From the IMG/VR virus record IMGVR_UViG_2872147552_000001: a stretch of 64,000 bases of DNA. The stretch is one strand, 5' to 3'. The notes under the pieces were generated by a model, which saw nothing but the letters and a program-made list of their open reading frames with translations, searched no databases and was not told the origin of the DNA. The position numbers and the translations under genes were made by a program. The stretch comes from a virus (lineage: Duplodnaviria > Heunggongvirae > Uroviricota > Caudoviricetes). Below are positions 1,091 to 13,743 of the stretch, piece after piece (the first letter of the stretch is position 1; the number at the start of each line of letters is the position of its first letter).

Positions 1091-1615
1091 ATGACAACCA
1101 AAGATATTACCTACGGTATCCAAGCTGAACTCTGGCCGCGAGATTACACTAACGTTGAAAAACTACTGATGTTCTGGCGCAGAGAACAAATTCCTGTAAG
1201 GGTCACTCTCGAAGATGGCCAGGCGTTTTGCATGTACGTTTATGGCCTCATGCCATCTCGTAACAAAGTTGACCTTTGCCCAGCCCCTTTTGACAAAGAA
1301 AATCGTATAAGGCTCCCACTTGAACGCATTAGTACAATTGAATCAGGTGTGGTTGACAGTATCGCTCACGATTTCAAAGGTCGACTAACAGTTCACCCTG
1401 ATTATGTCGATAATCGGCCATCACGCCGCGATTTTTTTGCAATTTGCAACCAAGCCTACAAAGCAAACAAATCTATAAGGGTGTACATGGCGGATGGCCG
1501 TGAAATTGAGGGGGTGTCAGCAGGCGCAGATGCTTGTCAGGTTACACTACGTGTCGAGAACGGTAGAAAAATAGTTGTTTTGTTCGATTGGGTTGAACGA
1601 ATTTTGCCTTTTTGA
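1091..1615 (+). CDS. hypothetical protein
   Basis: ORF track frame; first in-frame ATG after upstream stop at 1084-1086 chosen as start. Confidence 0.45.
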   Translation: MTTKDITYGIQAELWPRDYTNVEKLLMFWRREQIPVRVTLEDGQAFCMYVYGLMPSRNKVDLCPAPFDKENRIRLPLERISTIESGVVDSIAHDFKGRLTVHPDYVDNRPSRRDFFAICNQAYKANKSIRVYMADGREIEGVSAGADACQVTLRVENGRKIVVLFDWVERILPF

Positions 1616-3134: not shown

Positions 3135-3365
3135 ATGTTTGTTCTTATCGCTGGCGTTAACGTGCGCAATGAATATTTTGTTAATCGCATCGCTGGGATC
3201 GCTGGTTACGCTGGGCGCTCAGTCGAGTTTATCGATGAAACAACGCGTAAAATTGATTTATTGAGCGACCAGGAGCGAAAAAAAGCAGACGTGAACGACG
3301 CTGATATATTTTTAATGTTAAAAGCGTTTGTAGAAATGGGATTTAAAATCAGTTTACACAAATAA
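3135..3365 (+). CDS. hypothetical protein (76 aa)
   Basis: Same aaggagcttta RBS context as the previous gene. Confidence 0.45.
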   Translation: MFVLIAGVNVRNEYFVNRIAGIAGYAGRSVEFIDETTRKIDLLSDQERKKADVNDADIFLMLKAFVEMGFKISLHK

Positions 3366-3370
3366 AATCG

Positions 3371-3395
3371 AGCGCCCATAGTGGGCGCTTTTTTC
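3371..3395 (+). terminator. rho-independent terminator
   Basis: agcgcccatagtgggcgct hairpin followed by TTTTTT. Confidence 0.6.
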
Positions 3396-3415
3396 GTTTC
3401 CAATACTCCCACCAT

Positions 3416-3446
3416 AGCGCGCCATCATTGGCGCGTTTTTTATTGT
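3416..3446 (+). terminator. second tandem terminator
   Basis: agcgcgccatcattggcgcg hairpin followed by TTTTTT. Confidence 0.55.
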
Positions 3447-3854
3447 CTTTAACTCACTCCAACAACATAAAAATAAGCGCCAAAATAACGCCATAGACGC
3501 GCTTTTATATCCTTACCAGTACATACCCATTACTTAGCACATTAACGCGCTTAAAATGCGTTATATTGCGCTATAACGTATGGCTAATCATTGGCTTTTA
3601 TTCTTGCTATGTGATCCGCGTTTATTTGTCGGCGCGGATCGGCATTTTGTGTTGTTCTGTATCCGCTCGCGTATTATGTGCGCGTGATTTTTCACATAAT
3701 CACACCACTTAATCACGTATGTGATTACGCTACGAAAGAAATCTGGATGTCTCAGGCGACGAAAGTCATCATAATTTTCCCCGCTCGCCTGTCCGACAAC
3801 CGCTGGTTGGATTCCACCAGCTTCCCGATGTTTTTTTCTACATAAAGGCGAATG

Positions 3855-3970
3855 CAGCCGTTTCCCGAAAAAATCCTGGCCGTTTCCCGTCGGCTCATGA
3901 ATACGTTCCTCGCCGTTTCTGAAAATTTCCCTGCGGCAGCTGGTGGCTATAGAGAAAGGGCCGTTTCTGG
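3855..3970. repeat. cluster of four GCCGTTTC(C/T) direct repeats
   Basis: cagccgtttcccgaa, ggccgtttcccgt, cgccgtttctgaaaa, ggccgtttctgg within 115 bp. Confidence 0.6.
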
Positions 3971-3982
3971 CCCTCTTCTCAG

Positions 3983-4465
3983 TTACACGCCATCAAGGAT
4001 GTGGATGCGGTTGCTTGCGTATACATTCAGCATAAAGTTAGCGCAAAACAGTTTCCATGTATCAACGCCAGCGGTATACGTAATGTTTTTGCATTTAATC
4101 GCATTGTTGGCGATCCGCATCCCCTGCGATACTGCTTCATCGTCGGAAAATTTGAACGACGATTGAGTTTTAATCCAGACAGAAATCTGCGTAGCGAACT
4201 CAATCAGCTTGGACTGGCAGAATCGCCCGGAGCGCACCGGAAAGACGAACGTTCCGAATCCAGAATTTACCACATACGCTTTCTCAAATACCCGCGAGTA
4301 ACGACGATTGCCAATGATGTCGCGTGCAATAATGCATTTTTCTTGTGCTGACAGTTCTACCGTCTCATTGTCGCGCCATGCACCAAGTACTCGTTTTTCA
4401 ATGTCAGAGAACGTTACAGCGATATTGCCATGTGCGGGTGCGTTTACAGTAGCGATAAAATTCAT
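3983..4465 (-). CDS. hypothetical protein (160 aa)
   Basis: ORF with AAGGA RBS; upstream GATAAT -10 and palindromic leader motif. Confidence 0.5.
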   Translation of the reverse strand: MNFIATVNAPAHGNIAVTFSDIEKRVLGAWRDNETVELSAQEKCIIARDIIGNRRYSRVFEKAYVVNSGFGTFVFPVRSGRFCQSKLIEFATQISVWIKTQSSFKFSDDEAVSQGMRIANNAIKCKNITYTAGVDTWKLFCANFMLNVYASNRIHILDGV

Positions 4466-4486
4466 GATTAATTCCTTATCGTAAAT

Positions 4487-4497
4487 AACAAATTGTT
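4487..4497 (-). promoter_or_regulatory. class A palindromic leader motif (AACAAnTTGTT)
   Basis: aacaaattgtt about 22 nt upstream of the start at 4465. Confidence 0.5.
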
Positions 4498-4640
4498 TTC
4501 TTGTTGGTGTTAATTATCGTTGTACGAATAAGGCGTCAAAGTGGAAAGTTGCGGTAGCCGGACGGGAACAGGTGGGTTTGTCGGTTGCCTGGAGGTAAGA
4601 GGTTGGTGTTTTTAGCCTGCGGGAAACAGGATGGTCATTT

Positions 4641-4664
4641 AAGGCCACCAGCATTGGTGGCCTT
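4641..4664 (-). terminator. conserved GGCCACC hairpin at gene 3' end
   Basis: aaggccaccagcattggtggcctt directly after the stop at 4670; one of five related copies. Confidence 0.45.
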
Positions 4665-4669
4665 AATCT

Positions 4670-4951
4670 TTAGTGGAGCAGACCGATGTCGATGGTATCC
4701 CCTGAATCATCCACACGGATCATCAGCATGGCGAAGGCGTTTAGTGGATAACTGGCGTGCCATTCAGGGAAGCGGTCATCTCGCATGAAGTCGGCAATGT
4801 CGTAAACGCATCCCTCAAAGTGGAAGAATCGCGTGCTTACCTGCTCGTCATATTCCACATGATCCATTTCTTGCTGTTCTGTTTCCGGCAAGTCCAGCCA
4901 TGATTCAAGGAATACATTTTGTGCTTTAGGGGTAATGGTGAAATCAGTCAT
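4670..4951 (-). CDS. hypothetical protein (93 aa, acidic)
   Basis: Start moved to the ATG with GAGGA RBS (MTDFTITPK...); ORF track start lies upstream of the promoter motif. Confidence 0.45.
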   Translation of the reverse strand: MTDFTITPKAQNVFLESWLDLPETEQQEMDHVEYDEQVSTRFFHFEGCVYDIADFMRDDRFPEWHASYPLNAFAMLMIRVDDSGDTIDIGLLH

Positions 4952-4970
4952 GAGCATATCCTCACTGCGT

Positions 4971-4984
4971 AAACATGTTGTTTT
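4971..4984 (-). promoter_or_regulatory. class A palindromic leader motif
   Basis: aaacatgttgtttt about 20 nt upstream of the start. Confidence 0.45.
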
Positions 4985-5111
4985 CTTGTTGGTGTAATTA
5001 TCGCAGTGTAGATAAGGCATAAAAGAAGTTAATACAGGCTGAATACACAAGAAAGGTTCTGGAAGTTGATAGCCAGGTTTCAAACTAACCTTCGGTTATT
5101 AAAAGTCATTT

Positions 5112-5135
5112 AAGACCACCAATGCTGGTGGCCTT
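5112..5135 (-). terminator. conserved GGCCACC-type hairpin
   Basis: aagaccaccaatgctggtggcctt. Confidence 0.4.
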
Positions 5136-5140
5136 AATAA

Positions 5141-5284
5141 TTATCGACCGATTACGCTAAGGATCTTTTCCTCAACTGATTTGTTGTTGCGACTAAACTG
5201 CCTTGCGTATCTGATGACAGAAGAGGCGTTTTGCTTTCTGACCATCTCGGCTCTTTCCTTCAGGCGTTTCTTGAAATCGCCCAT
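5141..5284 (-). CDS. possible small basic protein (47 aa), not in ORF track
   Basis: ATG 2 nt after the stop of the upstream gene; MGDFKKRLKERAEMVRKQNASSVIRYARQFSRNNKSVEEKILSVIGR; ends just before the hairpin. Confidence 0.25.
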   Translation of the reverse strand: MGDFKKRLKERAEMVRKQNASSVIRYARQFSRNNKSVEEKILSVIGR

Positions 5285-5286
5285 AT

Positions 5287-5661
5287 TTACCACCAGGCGC
5301 AGAAGGTCAGTCTGTTATTGTGAAAGTCGTGGTTCTTAATCAGATCTTCCACAATCTCTTTCAACTCCCCCACATCATGCCAGTAACCTTCATCGTACTC
5401 CTGACTGCCGAAGAAAAAACCTTCCCGGGTAGGCAAGTACTCTTCGCAATTACTTTCGTTTATGTGCATCAAATGAGCCTTCAGAAAACAAATGTCATTC
5501 ATCGTTAATTCTAAAAGCTCACAATTTTCGACTTCACCTACGTTGCGCTCCATCCACCCAACGAGCGCATTGAACTTACGGAAGTAAGCAACCTGCTTTC
5601 TGGATGCCTCGTTATTCAGATCGTTTTTAGGCTGTGTCTCGATATAGATATCAAGTCCCAT
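5287..5661 (-). CDS. hypothetical protein
   Basis: Start set at ATG with AAGGAAA RBS (MGLDIYIETQ...). Confidence 0.45.
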   Translation of the reverse strand: MGLDIYIETQPKNDLNNEASRKQVAYFRKFNALVGWMERNVGEVENCELLELTMNDICFLKAHLMHINESNCEEYLPTREGFFFGSQEYDEGYWHDVGELKEIVEDLIKNHDFHNNRLTFCAWW

Positions 5662-5718
5662 GATGGTTTCCTTATTAAGTTGCTTCAGTGAAATCATTTT
5701 CACAAATCAGATAAGGCA

Positions 5719-5732
5719 GAAAACAAATTGTT
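5719..5732 (-). promoter_or_regulatory. class A palindromic leader motif
   Basis: gaaaacaaattgtt upstream of the start. Confidence 0.45.
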
Positions 5733-5778
5733 ATCGGGCATAAGAAAATGGCGCGGTTTACGCGCCATTTAAAGAGGA

Positions 5779-6174
5779 TTAAGCGAATACGCTTTCAGGG
5801 ATTAAGGTGTCGGCAGGAATGCCAGAGGTAATGCGCAGGCCGTACTGACCAATCCAGGCAGTGTTGGTATTCAGGTTGGAGGCGAATACGGTGTCAACCA
5901 TATTCATCATTGGTTCAAACACCTCTTCATCAACCTGGCGGAAGTAGTTCTCGATTTTCAGCAGCAGCGGGTCAGTTGCATCGAAAATAGACTGGTATTG
6001 AATCGCGTACTCGCCGCCGGAGGCATCACCTTTACGCACGATCGTACTGGCCTGGACTTCGGCACCAGTTTCGGTGTTGTACGTAACAACGGTGATTTTT
6101 GCCACATTCTTACCTTCGGCGGTTTCAGAGGCATAGTAAACATCAACTGTCAGTTTTTCGCGTTTAACGGTCAT
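5779..6174 (-). CDS. hypothetical protein
   Basis: Start set at MTVKREK ATG with GGAGAG RBS. Confidence 0.45.
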   Translation of the reverse strand: MTVKREKLTVDVYYASETAEGKNVAKITVVTYNTETGAEVQASTIVRKGDASGGEYAIQYQSIFDATDPLLLKIENYFRQVDEEVFEPMMNMVDTVFASNLNTNTAWIGQYGLRITSGIPADTLIPESVFA

Positions 6175-6216
6175 TTCACTCTCCGTAGTGTATTGGTTAT
6201 TTTTATATTCTATGAT

Positions 6217-6233
6217 CGTAAGTATGTACTTAC
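6217..6233 (-). promoter_or_regulatory. class B palindrome (TAAGTA..TACTTA type)
   Basis: cgtaagtatgtacttac about 45 nt upstream of the start. Confidence 0.4.
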
Positions 6234-6300
6234 AATACAAAAAAGCCCCGTAAGGATGGCGGGGCTGTCGTACTGTCGACTAATTACCACTTGCACATTA

Positions 6301-6612
6301 TCAGGCTATTGCCATCACTGATGCTCTCTGAATTTCTTGCTGGGCCACGCGGTTAACTTCCATCAAAGCCAGTTCGAGCTGATGTTCCGGCCACATTCTT
6401 TGAAATGCCATCCAGCCTTTTCCACGCTGGCGACGAACATTCATTACATAACGAGTAAAGGTGTTTTTATCGAAAGACACCGCTGTTTCACGGAACAGAC
6501 GAATAGAGGTTCCATTGGCAACGATGTCCAGCAAAGTTAATTGAGCAACCAGCGCAGGCTTCTCTTTTCTCTTCTGGTCTTTGTCCAGACCAAGAACCAA
6601 TGATTTTTTCAT
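6301..6612 (-). CDS. hypothetical protein (103 aa)
   Basis: Start at ATG with GGAG RBS (MKKSLVLG...). Confidence 0.45.
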   Translation of the reverse strand: MKKSLVLGLDKDQKRKEKPALVAQLTLLDIVANGTSIRLFRETAVSFDKNTFTRYVMNVRRQRGKGWMAFQRMWPEHQLELALMEVNRVAQQEIQRASVMAIA

Positions 6613-6623
6613 CACAACTCCGT

Positions 6624-6637
6624 AAACAACTTGTTTT
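6624..6637 (-). promoter_or_regulatory. class A palindromic leader motif
   Basis: aaacaacttgtttt 12 nt upstream of the start. Confidence 0.45.
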
Positions 6638-6737
6638 CTCAATGGCGTAAATAATACCAGTAAGAAAACGGCTACAAAGCATAATGATCAGGTGCATGAT
6701 CGATATGCAGGTTCTTCCCTGCGGCTACATATTAAGT

Positions 6738-6756
6738 TAAGCCAGCAATGCTGGCT
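6738..6756 (-). terminator. hairpin (variant of GGCCACC family)
   Basis: aagccagcaatgctggctt downstream of the gene ending at 6767. Confidence 0.35.
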
Positions 6757-6766
6757 TTGGTTGGGG

Positions 6767-7096
6767 TTACTCGAATACTTCAAGAAACTCCTGAACGTCC
6801 CAATGCTGGACGAGGTGAAGATAGACCTTAGAAATCACGTCATTTTCGCTATCGCATGTGAAGTAGTACTTCTGGCTGCGGTTGTATGTGTCCACACAAA
6901 ATTCGCTCATATCCATAAAGTCAGCATCTTCACCCATGTCGCAAATCATCAAAGCAGGTGCGTCATCACGAGTCATCAGCTCAAGCACCCACCGCGAATT
7001 GATCAGAGTGGAAGACCAACCTTCTAACTCATAAAACTGATCAAACTCTTTTTGAGTTAATTTCTTGATTTGGTTGATGTCGATATTTGCAAACAT
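6767..7096 (-). CDS. hypothetical protein (109 aa, acidic)
   Basis: Start at ATG with AAGGA RBS (MFANIDINQ...). Confidence 0.45.
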   Translation of the reverse strand: MFANIDINQIKKLTQKEFDQFYELEGWSSTLINSRWVLELMTRDDAPALMICDMGEDADFMDMSEFCVDTYNRSQKYYFTCDSENDVISKVYLHLVQHWDVQEFLEVFE

Positions 7097-7108
7097 AAAG
7101 CAATCCTT

Positions 7109-7122
7109 AAACAACTTGTTTT
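7109..7122 (-). promoter_or_regulatory. class A palindromic leader motif
   Basis: aaacaacttgtttt followed by GATAAT-like -10. Confidence 0.45.
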
Positions 7123-7457
7123 CTTGATGGTGTTATTATCGCAATAACGCACAGGCGAAAAAGGATTTTATTCCGGTGAATGTGGTTTTGGCAGTGAGTT
7201 TTCAGGTTCAGTACCGAGTACACTTTTTACATTATTCTGATTTAGTGGCCGAAGGTGGCTGGTGGGCAGAATAATCATCTCCCCGAAAACCTACTGAAAT
7301 CGATTGTGACCCGTTGGCTGTCTGGCACAATTACGCTGTAGCTGGGCATTCAGAGGGAGTCCAACGGTAAGTTAGTCCGCCTGCACGTGAGCGCCTCTCT
7401 TCTTCCCGCACATTACAGGTGGGTAGCCGCAACTCTCCCTCACGCTATACCGGTACG

Positions 7458-7595
7458 CCGCCGTTCCTGAACCGGCATCGAGCCTTTTCCCGAAATCCAC
7501 ACAGGCAACTCGACCGTTTCCCTGAAAACCTCCAGCCGTTCCCCGAAGGCAACCCAGCCGTTTCTGTAGCGGGATGCAGCTTTTTCCCTGTATGG
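7458..7595. repeat. second cluster of CCGTTTCC-type direct repeats
   Basis: cgccgttcctgaa, cgaccgtttccctgaaaa, cagccgtttccccgaa, cagccgtttctgta; same family as 3855-3970. Confidence 0.6.
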
Positions 7596-7599
7596 ACCG

Positions 7600-8640
7600 A
7601 AGGCTGACCGTAGGGGTGTTACGGGGGATAAAATCAGGAGTTGAATAAATACGAAAAAGGAGGCGACACCCCTCCTTCCCTCCCCACTTATACATACCTG
7701 GCTTCTTCGCTATACATGTTGTGTTTTATTCGTGTTTTATCTGTCTCAACCTCTCTATGGACGTTAACACTCACTCCTTCCAGAACGTTCTATACGGCGA
7801 CTAATTCTGTTGGTGAATTGGGTGTGTTGTTCTCTCTGTCGGTGTATGTGGTTTCGTTCGTTTTGCGGTGGTTCTTCTATGGGGTGTTCTCGTCGTTTTG
7901 GTGATTGTTCTTCTCCGTGTATGGAGTAATGGCAGGTGGGCGATTCCTTTCGTTGTTGTGTTTGAGTTGTTTGTCTGGAGTGTGAAAGGCTTTTGTAGTT
8001 ATTCGTGTATTGGGTAATGGCGTTTCCCGTGATTGTTCTGTTTCGTGTCTTTTGGGATTGAGAGAAGCCTTGCGGTTACAGGCTTCGTTGGGGGTTCAGT
8101 GATTCTGGTGTTTCTTCGCTGTTTGGGTAATGGCGTGTCGTGGGTATCGCGCGTATGAATGTTTTCGGATTGCCTGTGAAAGTTAGGTTGGTTGTCCGGT
8201 AGCCTGGGGAGAAGAGGTGGGTCTTTTCGGTAGCCTGCCATAAAGAGGTTGGTTGTTTTTGGAAATGGCATATGTGTTATTTAGTTGTTTTGTTATGCCT
8301 GAAAATAAGTTGTTTATATGGTTATGTAACGCAACGGGAACGATTTTGAGCGTGTGTTTTTGTTGGTAGTGTGTTGGGTCGTCTGTGGTGAAAATTGGAC
8401 GCTGTGGCGCTGTCTGCTGCGTAGAATTACGGGTATAAGCAGTGATGTGTGAAAACGTCAATTTTTTAGACCAAATAGGGTGAAAGCGTTGATGTTTCGT
8501 TGATCTGTTATTTAGTTGTTTTCTTGTTTGTATAAACAACTATAACCTATTGATATTTAAGGATGTGATTGCGGGTATGGAAGGGGAGTAGTGGCGATCA
8601 ACGGATTCTTATAGAAAAGAATCAAATTGTGACCGCCATT
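7600..8640. other. ORF-poor, GT-skewed noncoding region with degenerate repeats
   Basis: Plus strand strongly G+T rich; recurring gggtaatggcg and ggtagcctg units; only low-complexity ORFs. Confidence 0.5.
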
Positions 8641-8649
8641 ATCAATGTT

Positions 8650-9384
8650 TTACTTAGTTTTGTTTAGCAGAGAGAGAATTTCATCACTAATTTCACTCGC
8701 CTGTTTGATAGCCAATGCAGTTACCTCTTCTATGGTTGGTGACTGTTGATGCTCATGTTTGGTTTCAGTTATGACAATGTGTTCTTCACCTGAATTTGCG
8801 CATAGTGCCGCATTGACTATAAGGTTTGAGTAAGAATTTAGCAGAGCACTGTTGATAAACGCTTTCACGGTATTACTGTCTGCACCAAATACATCTTTTC
8901 TGACCGCTTCAGCCTCACAGCGAACCCCTGCAGCAACATCGTGAAGAACATGTATGGCCTTGGAGCTTGTTTGTTCACAGTACTCAATCATTATTGTCGA
9001 ATTGTTCTGTTCAACAAATGATCTGATGCCTGACGATTCACCCATAGCATCGAAGGCAGCGTGACCCGCACTAGTAGAGATATCTTCGTAGAGTTCTTCA
9101 TCGCTATCTTTTTCTTCAGGTGTCGAGGTGTCTTCATCGTCGTAATAGATATTGCCTTTAATCAGTGTTTTGGATACTTGATATAAACAATAAGAGACGA
9201 GATTTAAGCATTGGATTTTAGCTGTATTGTCCTTTGTCGCCTCGCTCTTCAGTTCTTTCGCTTCTTCAGTAAGGCTGTTGATAAGACTTTGTATTTTTTC
9301 CAACGCGTTAGGTGCACACTCCGCGTTGTCCATAAAGAATTTATAACCAGTTCCAGGGATTTCTAAACTTTTCAACTTTTTCAT
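8650..9384 (-). CDS. hypothetical protein (244 aa)
   Basis: Long ORF, acidic Ser/Glu-rich middle; no family recognised. Confidence 0.5.
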   Translation of the reverse strand: MKKLKSLEIPGTGYKFFMDNAECAPNALEKIQSLINSLTEEAKELKSEATKDNTAKIQCLNLVSYCLYQVSKTLIKGNIYYDDEDTSTPEEKDSDEELYEDISTSAGHAAFDAMGESSGIRSFVEQNNSTIMIEYCEQTSSKAIHVLHDVAAGVRCEAEAVRKDVFGADSNTVKAFINSALLNSYSNLIVNAALCANSGEEHIVITETKHEHQQSPTIEEVTALAIKQASEISDEILSLLNKTK

Positions 9385-9429
9385 TTCTTTGATAATCCTA
9401 AAAACAAACTACCAATGCTTTAATATCTG

Positions 9430-9729
9430 TTACCAGTTCCAGCACTCAAGCCCTTCAACGACCGGTGCACCACAATCAAAATGTACAGAGTCAAAGCCTA
9501 CATCAAGTACTTTCTGAATGTTAGCAATCGCGCCTTCGGATATACCATATCGACGCAAGTCCTCTTTCCAGACATCATCCTGTAACCCGGCGTGGACAAT
9601 ACAACCGCCGTCAATTTGCGAAACCCAATCCAGCTCATTGCTTGCGATCATGAATCGGCGAGCATCTTCCTCTGATGTATGAGATGAACTGATCAATGCC
9701 ACCTGGTAGGCTTGGGTAATGTTCAACAT
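9430..9729 (-). CDS. hypothetical protein (99 aa)
   Basis: ATG with GGAG RBS; class A motif in leader. Confidence 0.45.
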   Translation of the reverse strand: MLNITQAYQVALISSSHTSEEDARRFMIASNELDWVSQIDGGCIVHAGLQDDVWKEDLRRYGISEGAIANIQKVLDVGFDSVHFDCGAPVVEGLECWNW

Positions 9730-9741
9730 TTCAACCACTCC

Positions 9742-9756
9742 GAAACAATTTGTTTT
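9742..9756 (-). promoter_or_regulatory. class A palindromic leader motif
   Basis: gaaacaatttgtttt. Confidence 0.45.
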
Positions 9757-9790
9757 CTTATGTGGTTTATTATCTCCATCAACAAAAGGC

Positions 9791-9807
9791 AGAAAACAAA
9801 TTGTTTT
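9791..9807 (-). promoter_or_regulatory. class A palindromic motif, second copy
   Basis: agaaaacaaattgtttt 35 nt further upstream. Confidence 0.4.
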
Positions 9808-9844
9808 AGGTACTGTGTAAATCAGAAGGGATTGTGTCTATATG

Positions 9845-9871
9845 AAAATGCCCGGCGTGTTGCCGGGCATT
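9845..9871 (-). terminator. rho-independent terminator of metG
   Basis: Minus-strand hairpin gcccggcaacacgccgggc followed by UUUUCAU, 20 nt after the metG stop. Confidence 0.7.
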
Positions 9872-9890
9872 GCGAAGAGAGGTTGTTTAA

Positions 9891-11924
9891 TTACTTAACC
9901 TGGTGGCCAGGTTTAGCACCAGCATCCGGGCTTAACAGGAAGATATCTTTCCCGCCGGGGCCAGCAGCCATCACCATGCCTTCAGAGATACCGAAGCGCA
10001 TTTTACGTGGTGCCAGGTTAGCCACCATAATGGTGTGACGACCAATCAGTGCCTGTGGATCTGGATAAGCGGAACGGATGCCTGAGAAGACATTACGCTT
10101 TTCACCACCGAGATCCAGCGTCAGGCGAAGCAGTTTGTCAGAACCTTCTACAAACTCTGCGTTTTCAATCAGCGCCACGCGCAGGTCAACTTTGGCGAAG
10201 TCGTCAAAGGTGATAGTTTCCTGAATCGGGTCGTCAGCCAGTGGGCCAGTTACCGGTGCGGCTGTGGCTTTCACTTCTTCTTTGGATGCTTCCACCAGTG
10301 CTTCAACCTGCTTCATATCGATGCGGTTATACAGTGCCTTGAACGGATTTACTTTATGGCCCAGCAGCGGTTGCTGGATACCATCCCAGGTCAGTTCTGT
10401 ATTCAGGAATGCTTCTGCACGTTCAGTCAGTTTCGGCAGTACCGGCTTCAGGTACGTCATCAGCACGCGGAACAGGTTAATGCCCATAGAGCAAATCGCC
10501 TGCAGATCGGCATCGCGACCTTCCTGCTTCGCCACCACCCACGGAGCCTGTTCATCGACATAGCGGTTAGCCAGGTCAGCCAATGCCATGATTTCACGGA
10601 TAGCTTTACCAAATTCGCGGCTTTCCCATGCTTCGCCAATCACTTCAGCGGCATCAGTAAAGGTTTTGTACAGTTGCGGGTCAGCCAGTTCGCTTGCCAG
10701 CACGCCGTCAAAACGCTTGTTTATAAAGCCTGCATTACGGGAGGCCAGGTTAACCACTTTGTTCACGATATCGGCATTCACGCGCTGAACGAAATCCTCC
10801 AGGTTGAGATCGATATCATCAATGCGCGAAGAGAGTTTCGCAGTGTAGTAGTAACGCAGGCTGTCGGCGTCAAAATGATTCAGCCAGGTGCTGGCTTTAA
10901 TAAAGGTGCCGCGAGACTTGGACATCTTCGCGCCGTTCACCGTCACATAGCCGTGAACAAACAGGTTGGTCGGCTTGCGGAAGTTGCTGCCTTCCAGCAT
11001 GGCAGGCCAGAACAGGCTGTGGAAGTAAACAATATCTTTACCGATGAAGTGGTACAGCTCGGCGGTGGAGTCTTTCTTCCAGTATTCATCGAAGCTGGTG
11101 GTATCGCCGCGCTTGTCGCACAGATTCTTGAAGGAACCCATGTAGCCAATCGGCGCGTCCAGCCAGACGTAGAAATATTTGCCCGGCGCGTCCGGAATTT
11201 CAAAACCGAAGTAAGGCGCATCGCGGGAGATATCCCACTGTTGCAGGCCGGATTCAAACCATTCCTGCATTTTGTTCGCCACCTGCTCCTGCAACGCGCC
11301 GCTGCGGGTCCATGCCTGCAACATTTCGCTGAAAGAAGGCAGATCAAAGAAGAAGTGTTCGGAATCACGCATTACCGGGGTAGCGCCAGAAACCACCGAT
11401 TTCGGCTCGATCAATTCAGTCGGGCTATATGTTGCGCCGCAGACTTCACAGTTATCGCCGTATTGATCTGGCGCTTTACATTTCGGGCAGGTGCCTTTTA
11501 CAAAACGATCCGGCAGGAACATGCCTTTTTCCGGGTCGTACAACTGAGAGATAGTGCGGTTTTTAATAAAACCGTTCTCTTTCAGGCGAGTATAGATAAG
11601 CTCAGACAACTGACGGTTCTCTTCGCTGTGCGTCGAGTGATAGTTGTCATAGCTGATGTTAAAGCCTGCGAAATCAGTCTGGTGTTCCTGACTCATTTCG
11701 CCAATCATCTGCTCCGGTGTGATACCAAGCTGCTGCGCTTTCAGCATGATCGGCGTACCGTGGGCATCGTCGGCACAGATGAAATTAACCTCGTGGCCGC
11801 GCATTCGCTGGTAACGAACCCAGACATCAGCCTGGATGTGCTCCAGCATATGGCCGAGGTGGATTGAGCCGTTAGCGTACGGCAGCGCGCACGTCACCAG
11901 AATTTTCTTCGCGACTTGGGTCAT
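9891..11924 (-). CDS. metG: methionyl-tRNA synthetase
   Basis: 677 aa from [26 protein letters not shown] (HIGH motif) with KMSKS and C-terminal tRNA-binding domain; very close to enterobacterial MetG from memory. Confidence 0.9.
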
Positions 11925-12081
11925 AGTAGGCATTACTTCTTTGTAGTGAAAAGGGGCTTGATAGTAACAAAATGGCCTTATGTCTGCCATGTGATAACAG
12001 CATTTCTCATAAATGATTAAATGTCGTAGCTGGAGTACACTACAAGGCGACAATTGCGCAAATTAAAATAAAGGAGACGGG

Positions 12082-13728: not shown

Positions 13729-13743
13729 AGAAAACAAATTGTT
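13729..13743 (-). promoter_or_regulatory. class A palindromic motif
   Basis: gaaaacaaattgttt; part of the 50-bp unit repeated at 18003-18038. Confidence 0.45.

Follow-up and report, generated by a model that had tools for sequence, protein, structure and literature searches.

A repeated promoter-palindrome module and cassette exchange in a small-gene island of an SSU5-type phage-plasmid

What holds together a row of short genes in a phage genome that each have their own promoter and 3' hairpin, and what might such genes do? We addressed this question for positions 3,983 to 7,096 (the island) of a 64,000-nucleotide stretch of viral DNA (the window), where an original prediction had proposed a hot spot for anti-restriction and anti-defence genes. 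The whole window represents a phage-plasmid of the SSU5 supergroup and shares ~98% identity with E. coli pLF82 (phage Cyrano); 700 of the 729 plasmid records matching the window are non-mobilizable. For comparison, 83 related loci were fetched with cassette F as bait, giving 84 sequences including the window.

The six minus-strand ORFs of 93-160 aa and the coupled 47-aa ORF (D') that had been predicted were all found in place:

Cassette A ORF, 6767-7096, minus strand: 109 aa, pI 4.2, phrog_7645, dN/dS 0.05
Cassette B ORF, 6301-6612, minus strand: 103 aa, basic, phrog_5125
Cassette C ORF, 5779-6174, minus strand: 131 aa, acidic, phrog_2473
Cassette D ORF, 5287-5661, minus strand: 124 aa from MGLDIY, acidic
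D' ORF, 5141-5284, minus strand: 47 aa, basic, coupled to D
Cassette E ORF, 4670-4951, minus strand: 93 aa, pI 4.1
Cassette F ORF, 3983-4465, minus strand: 160 aa, basic

These ORFs are real genes, since six of the seven gave full-length PHROG family matches and dN/dS across them was 0.05-0.29 (the D' figure comes from two informative pairs only). Cassette C had the highest value (0.29), while B, E, and F, at 0.08-0.14, are under purifying selection. Several products had been described as acidic, which holds for A, C, D, and E (pI 4.1-4.8; net charge -14 for A, -12 for D, and -15 for E); B, D', and F are basic. The GC content of the genes (0.42-0.49) is like that of the window. The annotated start of cassette D lies at 5697, giving 136 aa, and the ATG of D' begins 2 nt past the D stop. 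The structure model of cassette D (pLDDT 94) has a predicted fold that is widespread in phages and, in a comparison made for D alone, resembles YfbM (DUF1877) and the Neisseria DNA mimic DMP12 (PDB 1ryl, 3w1o; PMC3643605). Cassette E yielded a low-confidence model without a fold match.

Every cassette had also been predicted to carry the same leader motif. The motif, AGAAAACAAnnTGTTTA, gave 16 matches against 1.04 expected, a number reached in none of 100 shuffles. Ahead of A, B, E, and F it reads in the sense direction and lies 12-21 nt 5' of the ATG; at D it is inverted and 5' of the -35 box, and from C it is absent. The same two arrangements account for all sites: the motif either follows a -10-like box at 12-21 nt before the ATG or lies inverted just 5' of a -35 box. 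On five of the six units it is part of a regulatory module in which a TTTGAC or TTGGAC -35 box and a GATAAT-type -10 box are 16 nt apart. The palindrome follows ~10 nt after the -10 box, between this box and the ribosome-binding site, and runs into the latter. A generic promoter scan did not call the module promoters, whose -35 boxes are weak. The promoters are:

A promoter-operator module, 7105-7175, minus strand: GATAAT at 7135-7140, palindrome at 7110-7124
B promoter-operator module, 6619-6690, minus strand: TATTAT at 6651-6656, palindrome at 6625-6639
C promoter, 6207-6235, minus strand: sigma-70-like (TTGTAA-17-TAGAAT), without the leader motif
D promoter, 5690-5740, minus strand: inverted palindrome at 5718-5736, then TTTTCTGCCTTATCT, then a GAAAAT -10 box at 5696-5701
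E promoter-operator module, 4955-5040, minus strand: GATAAT at 4997-5002, palindrome at 4972-4986
F promoter-operator module, 4468-4545, minus strand: TTTGAC-16-GATAAT with the -10 box at 4513-4518, palindrome at 4487-4501

The modules are 55-76 nt long and mutually 60-88% alike, with 4-5 copies in 3 kb. The block from the -35 box to the Shine-Dalgarno sequence upstream of B, E, and F is kept even where the F protein is only 67% identical and the flanks diverge. Nor is the motif a feature of the island as such: about 15 sites are spread over the 64-kb window, and more occur elsewhere in pLF82, with additional sites preceding helicase and parA and none in the pLF82 lysis-tail block (33-50 kb). 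A single sequence is thus shared by ~15 promoters of non-structural genes genome-wide. Furthermore, a second, inverted palindrome lies ~50 bp upstream at D, at the ancestral E promoter, and at ORF 9430-9729, so that two copies bracket the promoter; one promoter is bracketed by two perfect 16-nt copies 48 bp apart. We infer that the palindrome is a putative operator for an element-encoded dimeric DNA-binding regulator, for which the putative repressor CYRAN_45, an FljA-like protein, and cassette B are candidates.

All six cassettes end in some hairpin. The hairpin with GGCCACC arms (3 matches against 0.01 expected) had been assigned to several cassettes and is present after D' and E, while the hairpins that close A, B, C, and F are different ones. 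Together with the deviating C promoter and the inverted motif at D, its restriction to two cassettes contradicts the proposed identical architecture. The GAAACGGC arrays that had been taken to bound the island do lie on both flanks. Hairpins and repeats are positioned as follows:

Hairpin after A, 6739-6757, minus strand: 8-bp stem
Hairpin and U tract after B, 6244-6266, minus strand: intrinsic-terminator-like
Terminator-like hairpin after C, 5746-5770, minus strand: z -5.7
Hairpin after D', 5110-5137, no strand assigned: 12-bp stem, -17 kcal/mol, Chi on the plus strand
Hairpin after E, 4639-4666, no strand assigned: -20 kcal/mol, reverse complement of the D' hairpin, Chi on the minus strand
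Hairpin after F, 3952-3980, minus strand: GAAACGG copy in the loop
GGGAAACGGC / GAAACGGC array downstream of F, 3857-3970, minus strand: 4 exact copies, at 3857-3967
Second, degenerate GGRAAMGGCT array upstream of A, 7468-7590, minus strand: ~6 copies (1 exact and ~5 degenerate) at ~22-nt spacing
Three tandem ~30-nt units (CCAACCTCTT..CAGGCTACCGA), 4549-4641, minus strand: just 5' of the F promoter

The 28-nt hairpins are simple perfect palindromes, and the hairpin stem is preserved by compensatory changes. At 13729 and 18002 a hairpin directly adjoins a promoter module. The GGGAAACGGC array downstream of F is conserved across genera at least as well as the F protein, and the ~30-nt tandem units recur at 8193-8259.

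Comparison across related replicons showed that cassette content varies. Among the 83 related loci A, D-D', and E are variably present, additional cassettes are inserted in some, a RelE/ParE toxin-antitoxin pair occupies the same region of one relative, and architectures are nearly as numerous as loci. The order B-C-E-F is constant in E. coli, Klebsiella, Salmonella, and Kluyvera, and its E-F part extends to Yersinia pMT1; since this skeleton is stable, turnover is moderate. Thus, the predicted modular layout of single-gene units was borne out, with content that varies among relatives, but the island is less of a free hot spot than had been implied. Cassette A is confined to the Escherichia lineage (84 sequences compared) and E to SSU5-type elements, being missing from ~20 E. 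coli-type loci. B occurs in 76 of the 84 sequences, with the leader motif present every time, and F, itself the retrieval bait, in all related loci; the F family is very small (19 clusters). C has relatives in N15/phiKO2-like and other Klebsiella phages and falls into allele classes of 36%, 48-63%, and 89-100% identity, such that a 36% identical C can stand alongside a 100% identical F. B, C, and F are near-universal. Some relatives naturally lack A, D, D', or E, which suggests that these four may be dispensable.

The places where relatives part company coincide with the regulatory repeats. Only 19% of the island belongs to promoter, operator, or hairpin modules, yet 287 of 332 blastn endpoints (86%), or 47 of 61 distinct positions, lie there; the enrichment p-value is inflated, because breakpoints are partly bound to be intergenic, the modules were defined after the data were seen, and the loci are interdependent. 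D-D' is flanked by the direct repeat TGCCTTATCT and E by two hairpin modules, and loci without D-D' or without E are joined exactly at these repeats. As judged from these alignments, the comparison shows cassette deletion, insertion, and replacement at the repeats.

Transcription of the island genes was seen, albeit close to background in the lysogen. Cassettes A to F had values in LB lysogens of 5.7-25.5 against a background of 9.8, i.e. 0.6-2.6x (PMC9928086 Table S1), and D', at 5.9x, was the sole island gene above the published moron cut-off of 5-fold background (PMC9928086). A to F were up 2- to 20-fold in samples labelled MB1 (PMC9928086 Table S1), read here as macrophage at 1 h; the paper itself defines only MB6 (macrophage) and BLB (LB). 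The capsid gene rose only ~2-fold in MB1, and not until MB6 did it come up to a comparable level (PMC9928086 Table S1). Lysogen expression is clear for some motif-bearing genes, namely parA and that of the S24 peptidase (PMC9928086), so the palindrome is no simple on/off master-repressor site.

Several known systems resemble this organization. In the PeSL cassettes of T4-type hyperplastic regions, modules of a sigma-70-like promoter and a stem-loop flank small, non-essential ORFs, and the indels and replacements that distinguish close relatives have their ends inside these modules (Arbiol et al. 2010, PMC2839356; Comeau et al. 2014, PMC4122927). Likewise, promoter modules here are repeated among small, hairpin-terminated ORFs and hold most endpoints. 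In contrast to PeSL, the host is a temperate siphovirus, an SSU5-type phage-plasmid, rather than a lytic T4-type myovirus; the motif appears unrelated to the PeSL consensus; the promoter has a putative palindromic operator and the genes are low in the lysogen; and promoter and hairpin are not always contiguous. Integron gene cassettes are a poor match: those are promoterless ORFs with attC, an integrase, and attI, whereas the island cassettes have their own promoters and simple palindromic hairpins, and no integron integrase was found adjacent to the island. Dispersed-operator regulons are known from the C1 operators of phage P1, also a phage-plasmid, and from the KorA/KorB operators of the IncP plasmid RK2. 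As in these, a short operator at many promoters would tie scattered genes to one regulator; the operator sequence differs from the asymmetric P1 C1 site and is palindromic.

On these grounds we consider the island to be, probably, an accessory region of early type that is gated by a repressor and analogous to PeSL regions, and in which recombination between the common regulatory repeats shuffles the cassettes. The small autonomous transcription units would be organized like T4-type hyperplastic regions, with an element-encoded regulator holding ~15 non-structural promoters low in the plasmid state and releasing them upon induction or infection. Module copies every 400-500 bp would then allow homologous recombination to delete, insert, or replace whole cassettes. 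The weakest step concerns the small, mostly acidic, non-enzymatic-looking products, which would most likely act at an early lytic stage by binding proteins of the host or of competitors; their targets could include defence systems, by inhibition.

Other explanations account for parts of this pattern. The leader motif might act on RNA, as a translational operator adjoining the Shine-Dalgarno sequence and bound by an element-encoded repressor like T4 RegA or FljA, a reading we regard as decidedly unlikely. The motif does lie within the predicted 5' UTR of A, B, E, and F, and 2.4 kb away is a full-length candidate FljA-family gene (1091-1615, plus strand; PF03614, E 1.5e-84, plus a weak Hfq-like match), a conserved neighbour in pLF82, SSU5, and pJN2-26; FljA-type proteins block translation of fliC mRNA (PMC2652032). 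The E. coli fliC 5' UTR lacks the motif, and a weak check with a RegA query found no RegA-like ORF. In favour of a DNA operator, folding gave no structure for the leader RNA (-3 kcal/mol, z > 0), and the palindrome arms do not covary, the Klebsiella E leader reading AGAAAACAAGTTATTAAC. At four promoters (D, ORF 9430-9729, S24 peptidase gene, and 18002) a copy is 5' of the -35 box and just past the preceding terminator, and therefore outside that gene's mRNA; bracketing of promoters at ~50 bp is the geometry of a DNA operator. The mutual likeness of the promoter modules might instead have arisen when a single ancestral cassette was recently duplicated in tandem, and would then have no functional meaning. 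This is largely excluded and retains hardly any probability: the ORFs are unrelated, belonging to different PHROG families and staying separate in all-against-all blastp, and the modules are kept across genera amid diverging surroundings and recur next to unrelated genes at distances of up to tens of kb. Only slightly more credible, and still very improbable, is that the cassettes are classical morons, i.e. genes for lysogenic conversion or plasmid maintenance that the resident plasmid expresses to the benefit of the host. Morons of lambdoid phages are promoter-gene-terminator units inserted between core genes, and in sequence anatomy the island cassettes resemble them as autonomous single-gene units, each with a promoter and 3' hairpin of its own, that vary in presence among relatives. 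The expression of D' and the toxin-antitoxin pair in one relative would also fit. Expression from the repressed prophage is part of what defines a moron, whereas the other six ORFs stay well under the cut-off; moreover, GC content does not set the genes apart from the window, and their control motif is common to replication genes.

The modular layout behind the proposed anti-defence role was confirmed, but the role itself found no direct support in profile searches. Neither strict conservation of cassette content among relatives nor a lack of transcription, which would have spoken against the original prediction, was observed. Searches of Pfam, NCBIfam, PADLOC, and PDB sequences, libraries not dedicated to anti-defence, gave no matches for the island proteins, whether to Ocr, ArdA, ArdB/KlcA, Dar, Acr, Rad, or other anti-defence or defence families. 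That the island is chiefly an anti-restriction or anti-defence bank, with one or more cassettes inhibiting restriction-modification, RecBCD, or other immunity early after DNA entry, is a tentative reading that we place on the unlikely side. Small, acidic products, silence in the lysogen with a rise under stress, and presence/absence with allele replacement, typical of arms races and most marked in the dN/dS of C, all speak for it. Furthermore, a published DefenseFinder screen of 1227 SSU5-group contigs found Rad only, in a subset; with known anti-defence genes so scarce, an anti-defence role is left unfilled. Conjugative-plasmid leading regions, T7 0.3/ocr, and the T5 pre-early region are the natural comparators, and the likeness lies in clusters of small, often acidic, early ORFs with their own promoters; in contrast, no shared gene families were found, and the matching plasmids are largely non-mobilizable. 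The conserved, syntenic B, E, and F under purifying selection fit a role in the element's own cycle at least equally well, and the E model offers no fold to argue from. A more specific version, clearly unlikely, is a repressor-gated counter-defence bank peculiar to SSU5-type elements, with at least one new inhibitor of a host nucleic-acid-binding or immune protein (candidates being D, by its predicted fold, and the element-specific acidic A and E) and with the strongly conserved GGGAAACGGC arrays on both sides of the island as binding sites of a second control protein, for which the FljA-family protein encoded nearby is a possible candidate.

Clinical E. coli, Klebsiella, Salmonella, and Yersinia commonly carry SSU5-type phage-plasmids, in which almost none of the non-structural genes has a known function. 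The seven real ORFs, mostly silent in lysogeny, provide a short list for host-takeover or anti-defence activity; if activity screens were negative, the region would represent ordinary phage accessory-gene mosaicism. The shared promoter-operator defines a regulon of ~15 promoters and thereby offers a route to its regulator, and a simple recombination mechanism would explain how small genes are exchanged among SSU5-type elements.

The region 3400-8700, which spans the island of small minus-strand genes at 3983-7096, matched ~170 non-mobilizable enterobacterial plasmids of ~110 kb over its full length with 98-99% identity, among them pLF82 of E. coli LF82 (= phage Cyrano), and partial matches were found in Klebsiella, Salmonella (phage SSU5), Enterobacter and Yersinia pMT1. 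These plasmid identities identify the window, by sequence, as an SSU5-supergroup phage-plasmid. The island is flanked on one side by a plus-strand block that includes an FljA-family gene and on the other by a 1.5-kb non-coding stretch, beyond which follow two further small ORFs and then host-derived metG. No Rfam match was obtained within 3300-9900. All seven predicted minus-strand ORFs of the island are present, and the features of the region are as follows:

3814 (-), 3939 (+), 4645 (-), 5124 (+) and 7258 (+): five copies of the Chi octamer in or next to the island
3983-4465, minus strand: ORF F
4549-4641: three tandem ~30-nt units, CCAACCTCTT-N7-CAGGCTACCGA, directly 5' of the F promoter
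4670-4951, minus strand: ORF E
5141-5284, minus strand: ORF D' (CYRAN_109, 144 nt)
5287-5661/5697, minus strand: ORF D
5779-6174, minus strand: ORF C
6301-6612, minus strand: ORF B
6767-7096, minus strand: ORF A
8193-8259: second triplet of ~30-nt units, within the non-coding stretch
8650-9384, minus strand: 244-aa acidic coiled-coil ORF, on the moron list for LF82
9430-9729, minus strand: 99-aa acidic ORF with a DUF5983 C-terminal domain and a predicted double operator
9891-12053, minus strand: metG, host-derived

The original prediction described cassettes (small genes each with a promoter and a 3' hairpin) of identical architecture, with a leader motif at each 5' end. The motif, the palindrome AAGAAAACAANNTGTT, occurs well above chance, with 16 matches at up to two mismatches against 1.04 expected from shuffling. 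It is not an island feature: ~15 sites are spread across the window and more lie before the helicase and parA genes in pLF82, while none was found in the part of the pLF82 lysis-tail block that could be scanned. Furthermore, only A, B, E and F carry it at the 5' end as predicted; D has an inverted copy upstream of its -35 box, and C has none and uses its own motif-less promoter (TTGTAA-17-TAGAAT), so the promoter architecture is not identical.

When the 120-nt sequences 5' of A, B, E and F were aligned with those of relatives whose F protein identity ranged down to 67%, one conserved block stood out between diverging flanks: TT(T/G)GAC, 16 nt, GATAAT (TATTAT in B), 10-11 nt, AGAAAACAAnnTGTTTA and a Shine-Dalgarno sequence. 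This block can be read as a sigma-70-type promoter with the palindrome at about +3 to +20. At several promoters (those of D, ancestral E, the ORF at 9430-9729, the S24 peptidase gene and the 18002 site) a second, inverted motif copy lies directly 5' of the -35 box and right after the previous terminator, and at 9743-9806 a promoter is bracketed by two perfect 16-nt copies 48 bp apart. We take this geometry of copies around promoters as evidence that the palindrome is a putative DNA operator for a dimeric protein. Candidates for this protein are the putative repressor CYRAN_45, the FljA-like CYRAN_114 and the product of cassette B. An RNA hairpin in the leader was considered and rejected: the transcribed leader is no more stable than its shuffles (-3 to -4 kcal/mol, z > 0), the loop would measure just 2 nt, and mutations in the arms are uncompensated. 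The motif was absent from the E. coli fliC leader and from the intergenic region at 60060-60380, the presumed immunity region by coordinate conversion from pLF82, and tblastn, here a weak check, found no homologue of T4 RegA. Among the matches listed, viral contigs with at least two motif matches were SSU5-type elements, as judged by contig name.

At the 3' ends, the predicted GGCCACC hairpin follows D' and E, whereas other hairpins stand after A, B, C and F, and those of B and C look like intrinsic terminators. Its two island copies (4639-4666 and 5110-5137) are mutual reverse complements. In relatives, hairpins of the TTAAGGCY...RGCCTTAA family retain their stem by compensatory changes (CACCA/TGGTG to CATCA/TGATG to CTATA/TATAG).

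The Chi octamer, GCTGGTGG, is present 16 times in 64 kb, compared to 1.3 expected, a count reached in 0 of 100 shuffles. Each GGCCACC hairpin holds one Chi, in opposite orientations. Since the compensatory changes in relatives keep the stem and abolish Chi, selection at these sites seems to act on the hairpin and not on Chi. The CCACCAGC copy 3' of F is conserved across genera.

To compare cassette content, loci were fetched with F as bait (77 viral and 6 genomic) and cassettes were mapped on all of them. F is present in every locus by this design; across the 83 loci plus the window, the counts were 76 for B, 74 for C, 63 for E, 38 for D, 35 for A (confined to Escherichia-type loci) and 30 for D'. 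Cassette order was constant across the compared loci. C fell into allele classes of ~36%, 48-63% and 89-100% identity, and the 36% allele was found beside a 100% identical F. Relatives also carry extra cassettes: a RelE/ParE pair, one ORF each of 310 and 232 aa, and several of 70-120 aa. In many of these insertions the promoter module recurs, together with a TTAAGGCY...RGCCTTAA-family hairpin. The modular and variable layout that had been proposed is thus supported by cassette content that differs across the 83 loci.

Breakpoints of blastn alignments against the window clustered at 7108/7124, 6619-6683, 6217, 5709/5030 and 5105/4667. Regulatory modules, which make up 19% of the island, contained 287 of 332 blastn endpoints, an enrichment for which the modules were defined after the data had been seen and in which intergenic breakpoints are expected anyway. 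In loci lacking D-D' the junction falls inside the TTTTCTGCCTTATCT promoter segment, which is present on both sides of D-D', and in loci lacking E it falls inside the hairpin module, present on both sides of E. Because breakpoints and junctions fall in repeated modules, we conclude that cassettes are gained and lost via recombination between repeated regulatory sequences, for which the junction sequences are stronger evidence than the endpoint counts.

In Klebsiella-type loci L045-L054, E directly follows D through the same ...TGGTGGTAAATATG stop-start junction that joins D and D' in the window. This shared junction indicates that D's downstream partner is exchangeable.

Six of the seven ORFs match PHROG families of unknown function over their full length; the match of D begins at residue 13, which makes MGLDIY at 5661 the likely start. 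Every ORF is under purifying selection against the 83 related loci (median dN/dS 0.05-0.29, with only two informative pairs for D'). The acidity noted earlier holds for A, C, D and E, but B, D' and F are basic. Matches to E numbered 35, nearly all of at least 68% identity, and were confined to SSU5-type elements, whereas relatives of C also occur in N15/phiKO2-like and other Klebsiella phages and D is a member of a broad phage family, its BFVD matches being uncharacterised proteins without exception. An exhaustive HMMER search with F found just 19 clusters among 1.84 billion representatives; one of these, a 5602-aa eukaryote-like repeat protein, was rejected as a score-summing artefact. The sole apparent hit of the PDB sequence searches, A to potato multicystatin (E 1e-4), was likewise rejected, as this score adds up three weak alignments, with individual E-values of 19-300, to a protein made of repeats.

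The island had also been likened to sites of anti-restriction and anti-defence genes. Scanning every ORF against Pfam, NCBIfam and PADLOC gave nothing above noise, so that no protein was recognised by the profile libraries, and the predicted model of E was unreliable, with no fold match. The charge of D and its modelled resemblance to DMP12 are a lead rather than a result. Since the protein searches gave no recognised family and E no fold match, an anti-defence function of the island proteins is possible but unsupported.

RNA-seq of strain LF82, re-analysed by Misson et al. (PMC9928086), showed that the island ORFs are transcribed. In overnight LB, where the Cyrano background was 9.8 normalised counts, A reached 12.8, B 12.2, C 17.0, D 5.7, D' 57.9, E 6.7 and F 25.5 (PMC9928086), and D' was the sole island gene past that study's 5-fold moron cut-off. 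Island genes were up 2- to 20-fold in samples labelled MB1 (PMC9928086), read here as macrophage, 1 h; the paper defines just MB6 (macrophage) and BLB (LB). The major capsid gene rose only ~2-fold in MB1 and reached a comparable level in MB6 only (PMC9928086). The island genes are thus transcribed, at a low level in the plasmid state, and behave as early- rather than late-like, for which the evidence is indirect because Misson et al. conclude that there is no productive Cyrano induction in macrophages (PMC9928086).

The D' count of 58 far exceeds those of its neighbours D (5.7) and E (6.7) in the lysogen, which suggests that D' is not co-transcribed with D but lies on a small transcript of its own, or on a stable 3' fragment that ends at the hairpin.

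The repeat clusters said to bound the island were confirmed: the five exact copies of GAAACGGC in 64 kb all lie within two flanking arrays. These GGGAAACGGC arrays (3857-3970 and 7468-7590) have a spacing of ~22 nt and like orientation, one on each side of the island, and the array 3' of F appears at least as conserved as the F protein across Escherichia, Klebsiella, Salmonella and Yersinia elements (array consensus compared with F identity). They are unlikely to be RepA iterons: repA lies ~37 kb from the island, at ~41.2 kb in the window (coordinates converted from pLF82), and the exact octamer is confined to the two arrays. Within the array 3' of F, the 12-mer TGAGCCGACGGG (3886-3897, minus strand), which occurs once in the window, is identical to a 12-mer of the E. 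coli K-12 fliC 5' UTR (GAGCCGACGGGTGGAAACCC). This match was spotted post hoc and may be due to chance; Klebsiella- and Salmonella-type arrays do not keep it exactly, having AACCGA[A/C]GGG.

The FljA-family gene (1091-1615, plus strand) matches Pfam PF03614 (repressor of phase-1 flagellin) over its full length (E 1.5e-84), with a weak Hfq-like match, and its position is kept in pLF82, SSU5 and pJN2-26. FljA-type proteins block translation of fliC mRNA (PMC2652032), and the element may therefore silence host flagellin through this protein, or employ it in its own control.

On the other side of the island, the minus strand of the non-coding sequence at 7700-8620 (~900 nt) is strongly skewed (A 39%, C 30%, G 13.5%, T 18%), has no Rfam match and is near background in lysogen RNA-seq. 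Despite this, Klebsiella phage-plasmids show 69-87% conservation in blocks at 7606-7692, 7868-7954 and 8197-8658. The hypothetical ORFs annotated here in Cyrano, CYRAN_103 and CYRAN_104, are probably spurious. Past this stretch the cassette pattern resumes on the minus strand (8650-9384, 9430-9729 and 9891-12053), and relatives are variable, with an HD-domain gene, DUF1380 and LprI-like genes in place of the window's genes.

In promoter-early stem-loop (PeSL) cassettes of T4-type phages, conserved promoter and stem-loop modules flank small ORFs of unknown function in hyperplastic regions, and inter-module recombination produces indels between close relatives (PMC2839356, PMC4122927). This is the closest described system, with which the island shares two structural features; it lies outside the PeSL family because host element, motif and regulation all differ. 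From classical morons, promoter-gene-terminator units expressed in the lysogen, the island differs in its expression. The island's dispersed operator recalls systems of this type in phage-plasmid P1 (C1 regulon) and in RK2 (KorA/KorB regulon). Altogether, the predicted island is real, and its description was overstated in that the motif is not island-specific, the cassettes are not identical and the named hairpin stands at D' and E only. We file it as a set of repressible regulatory cassettes driving modular shuffling in a temperate phage-plasmid.
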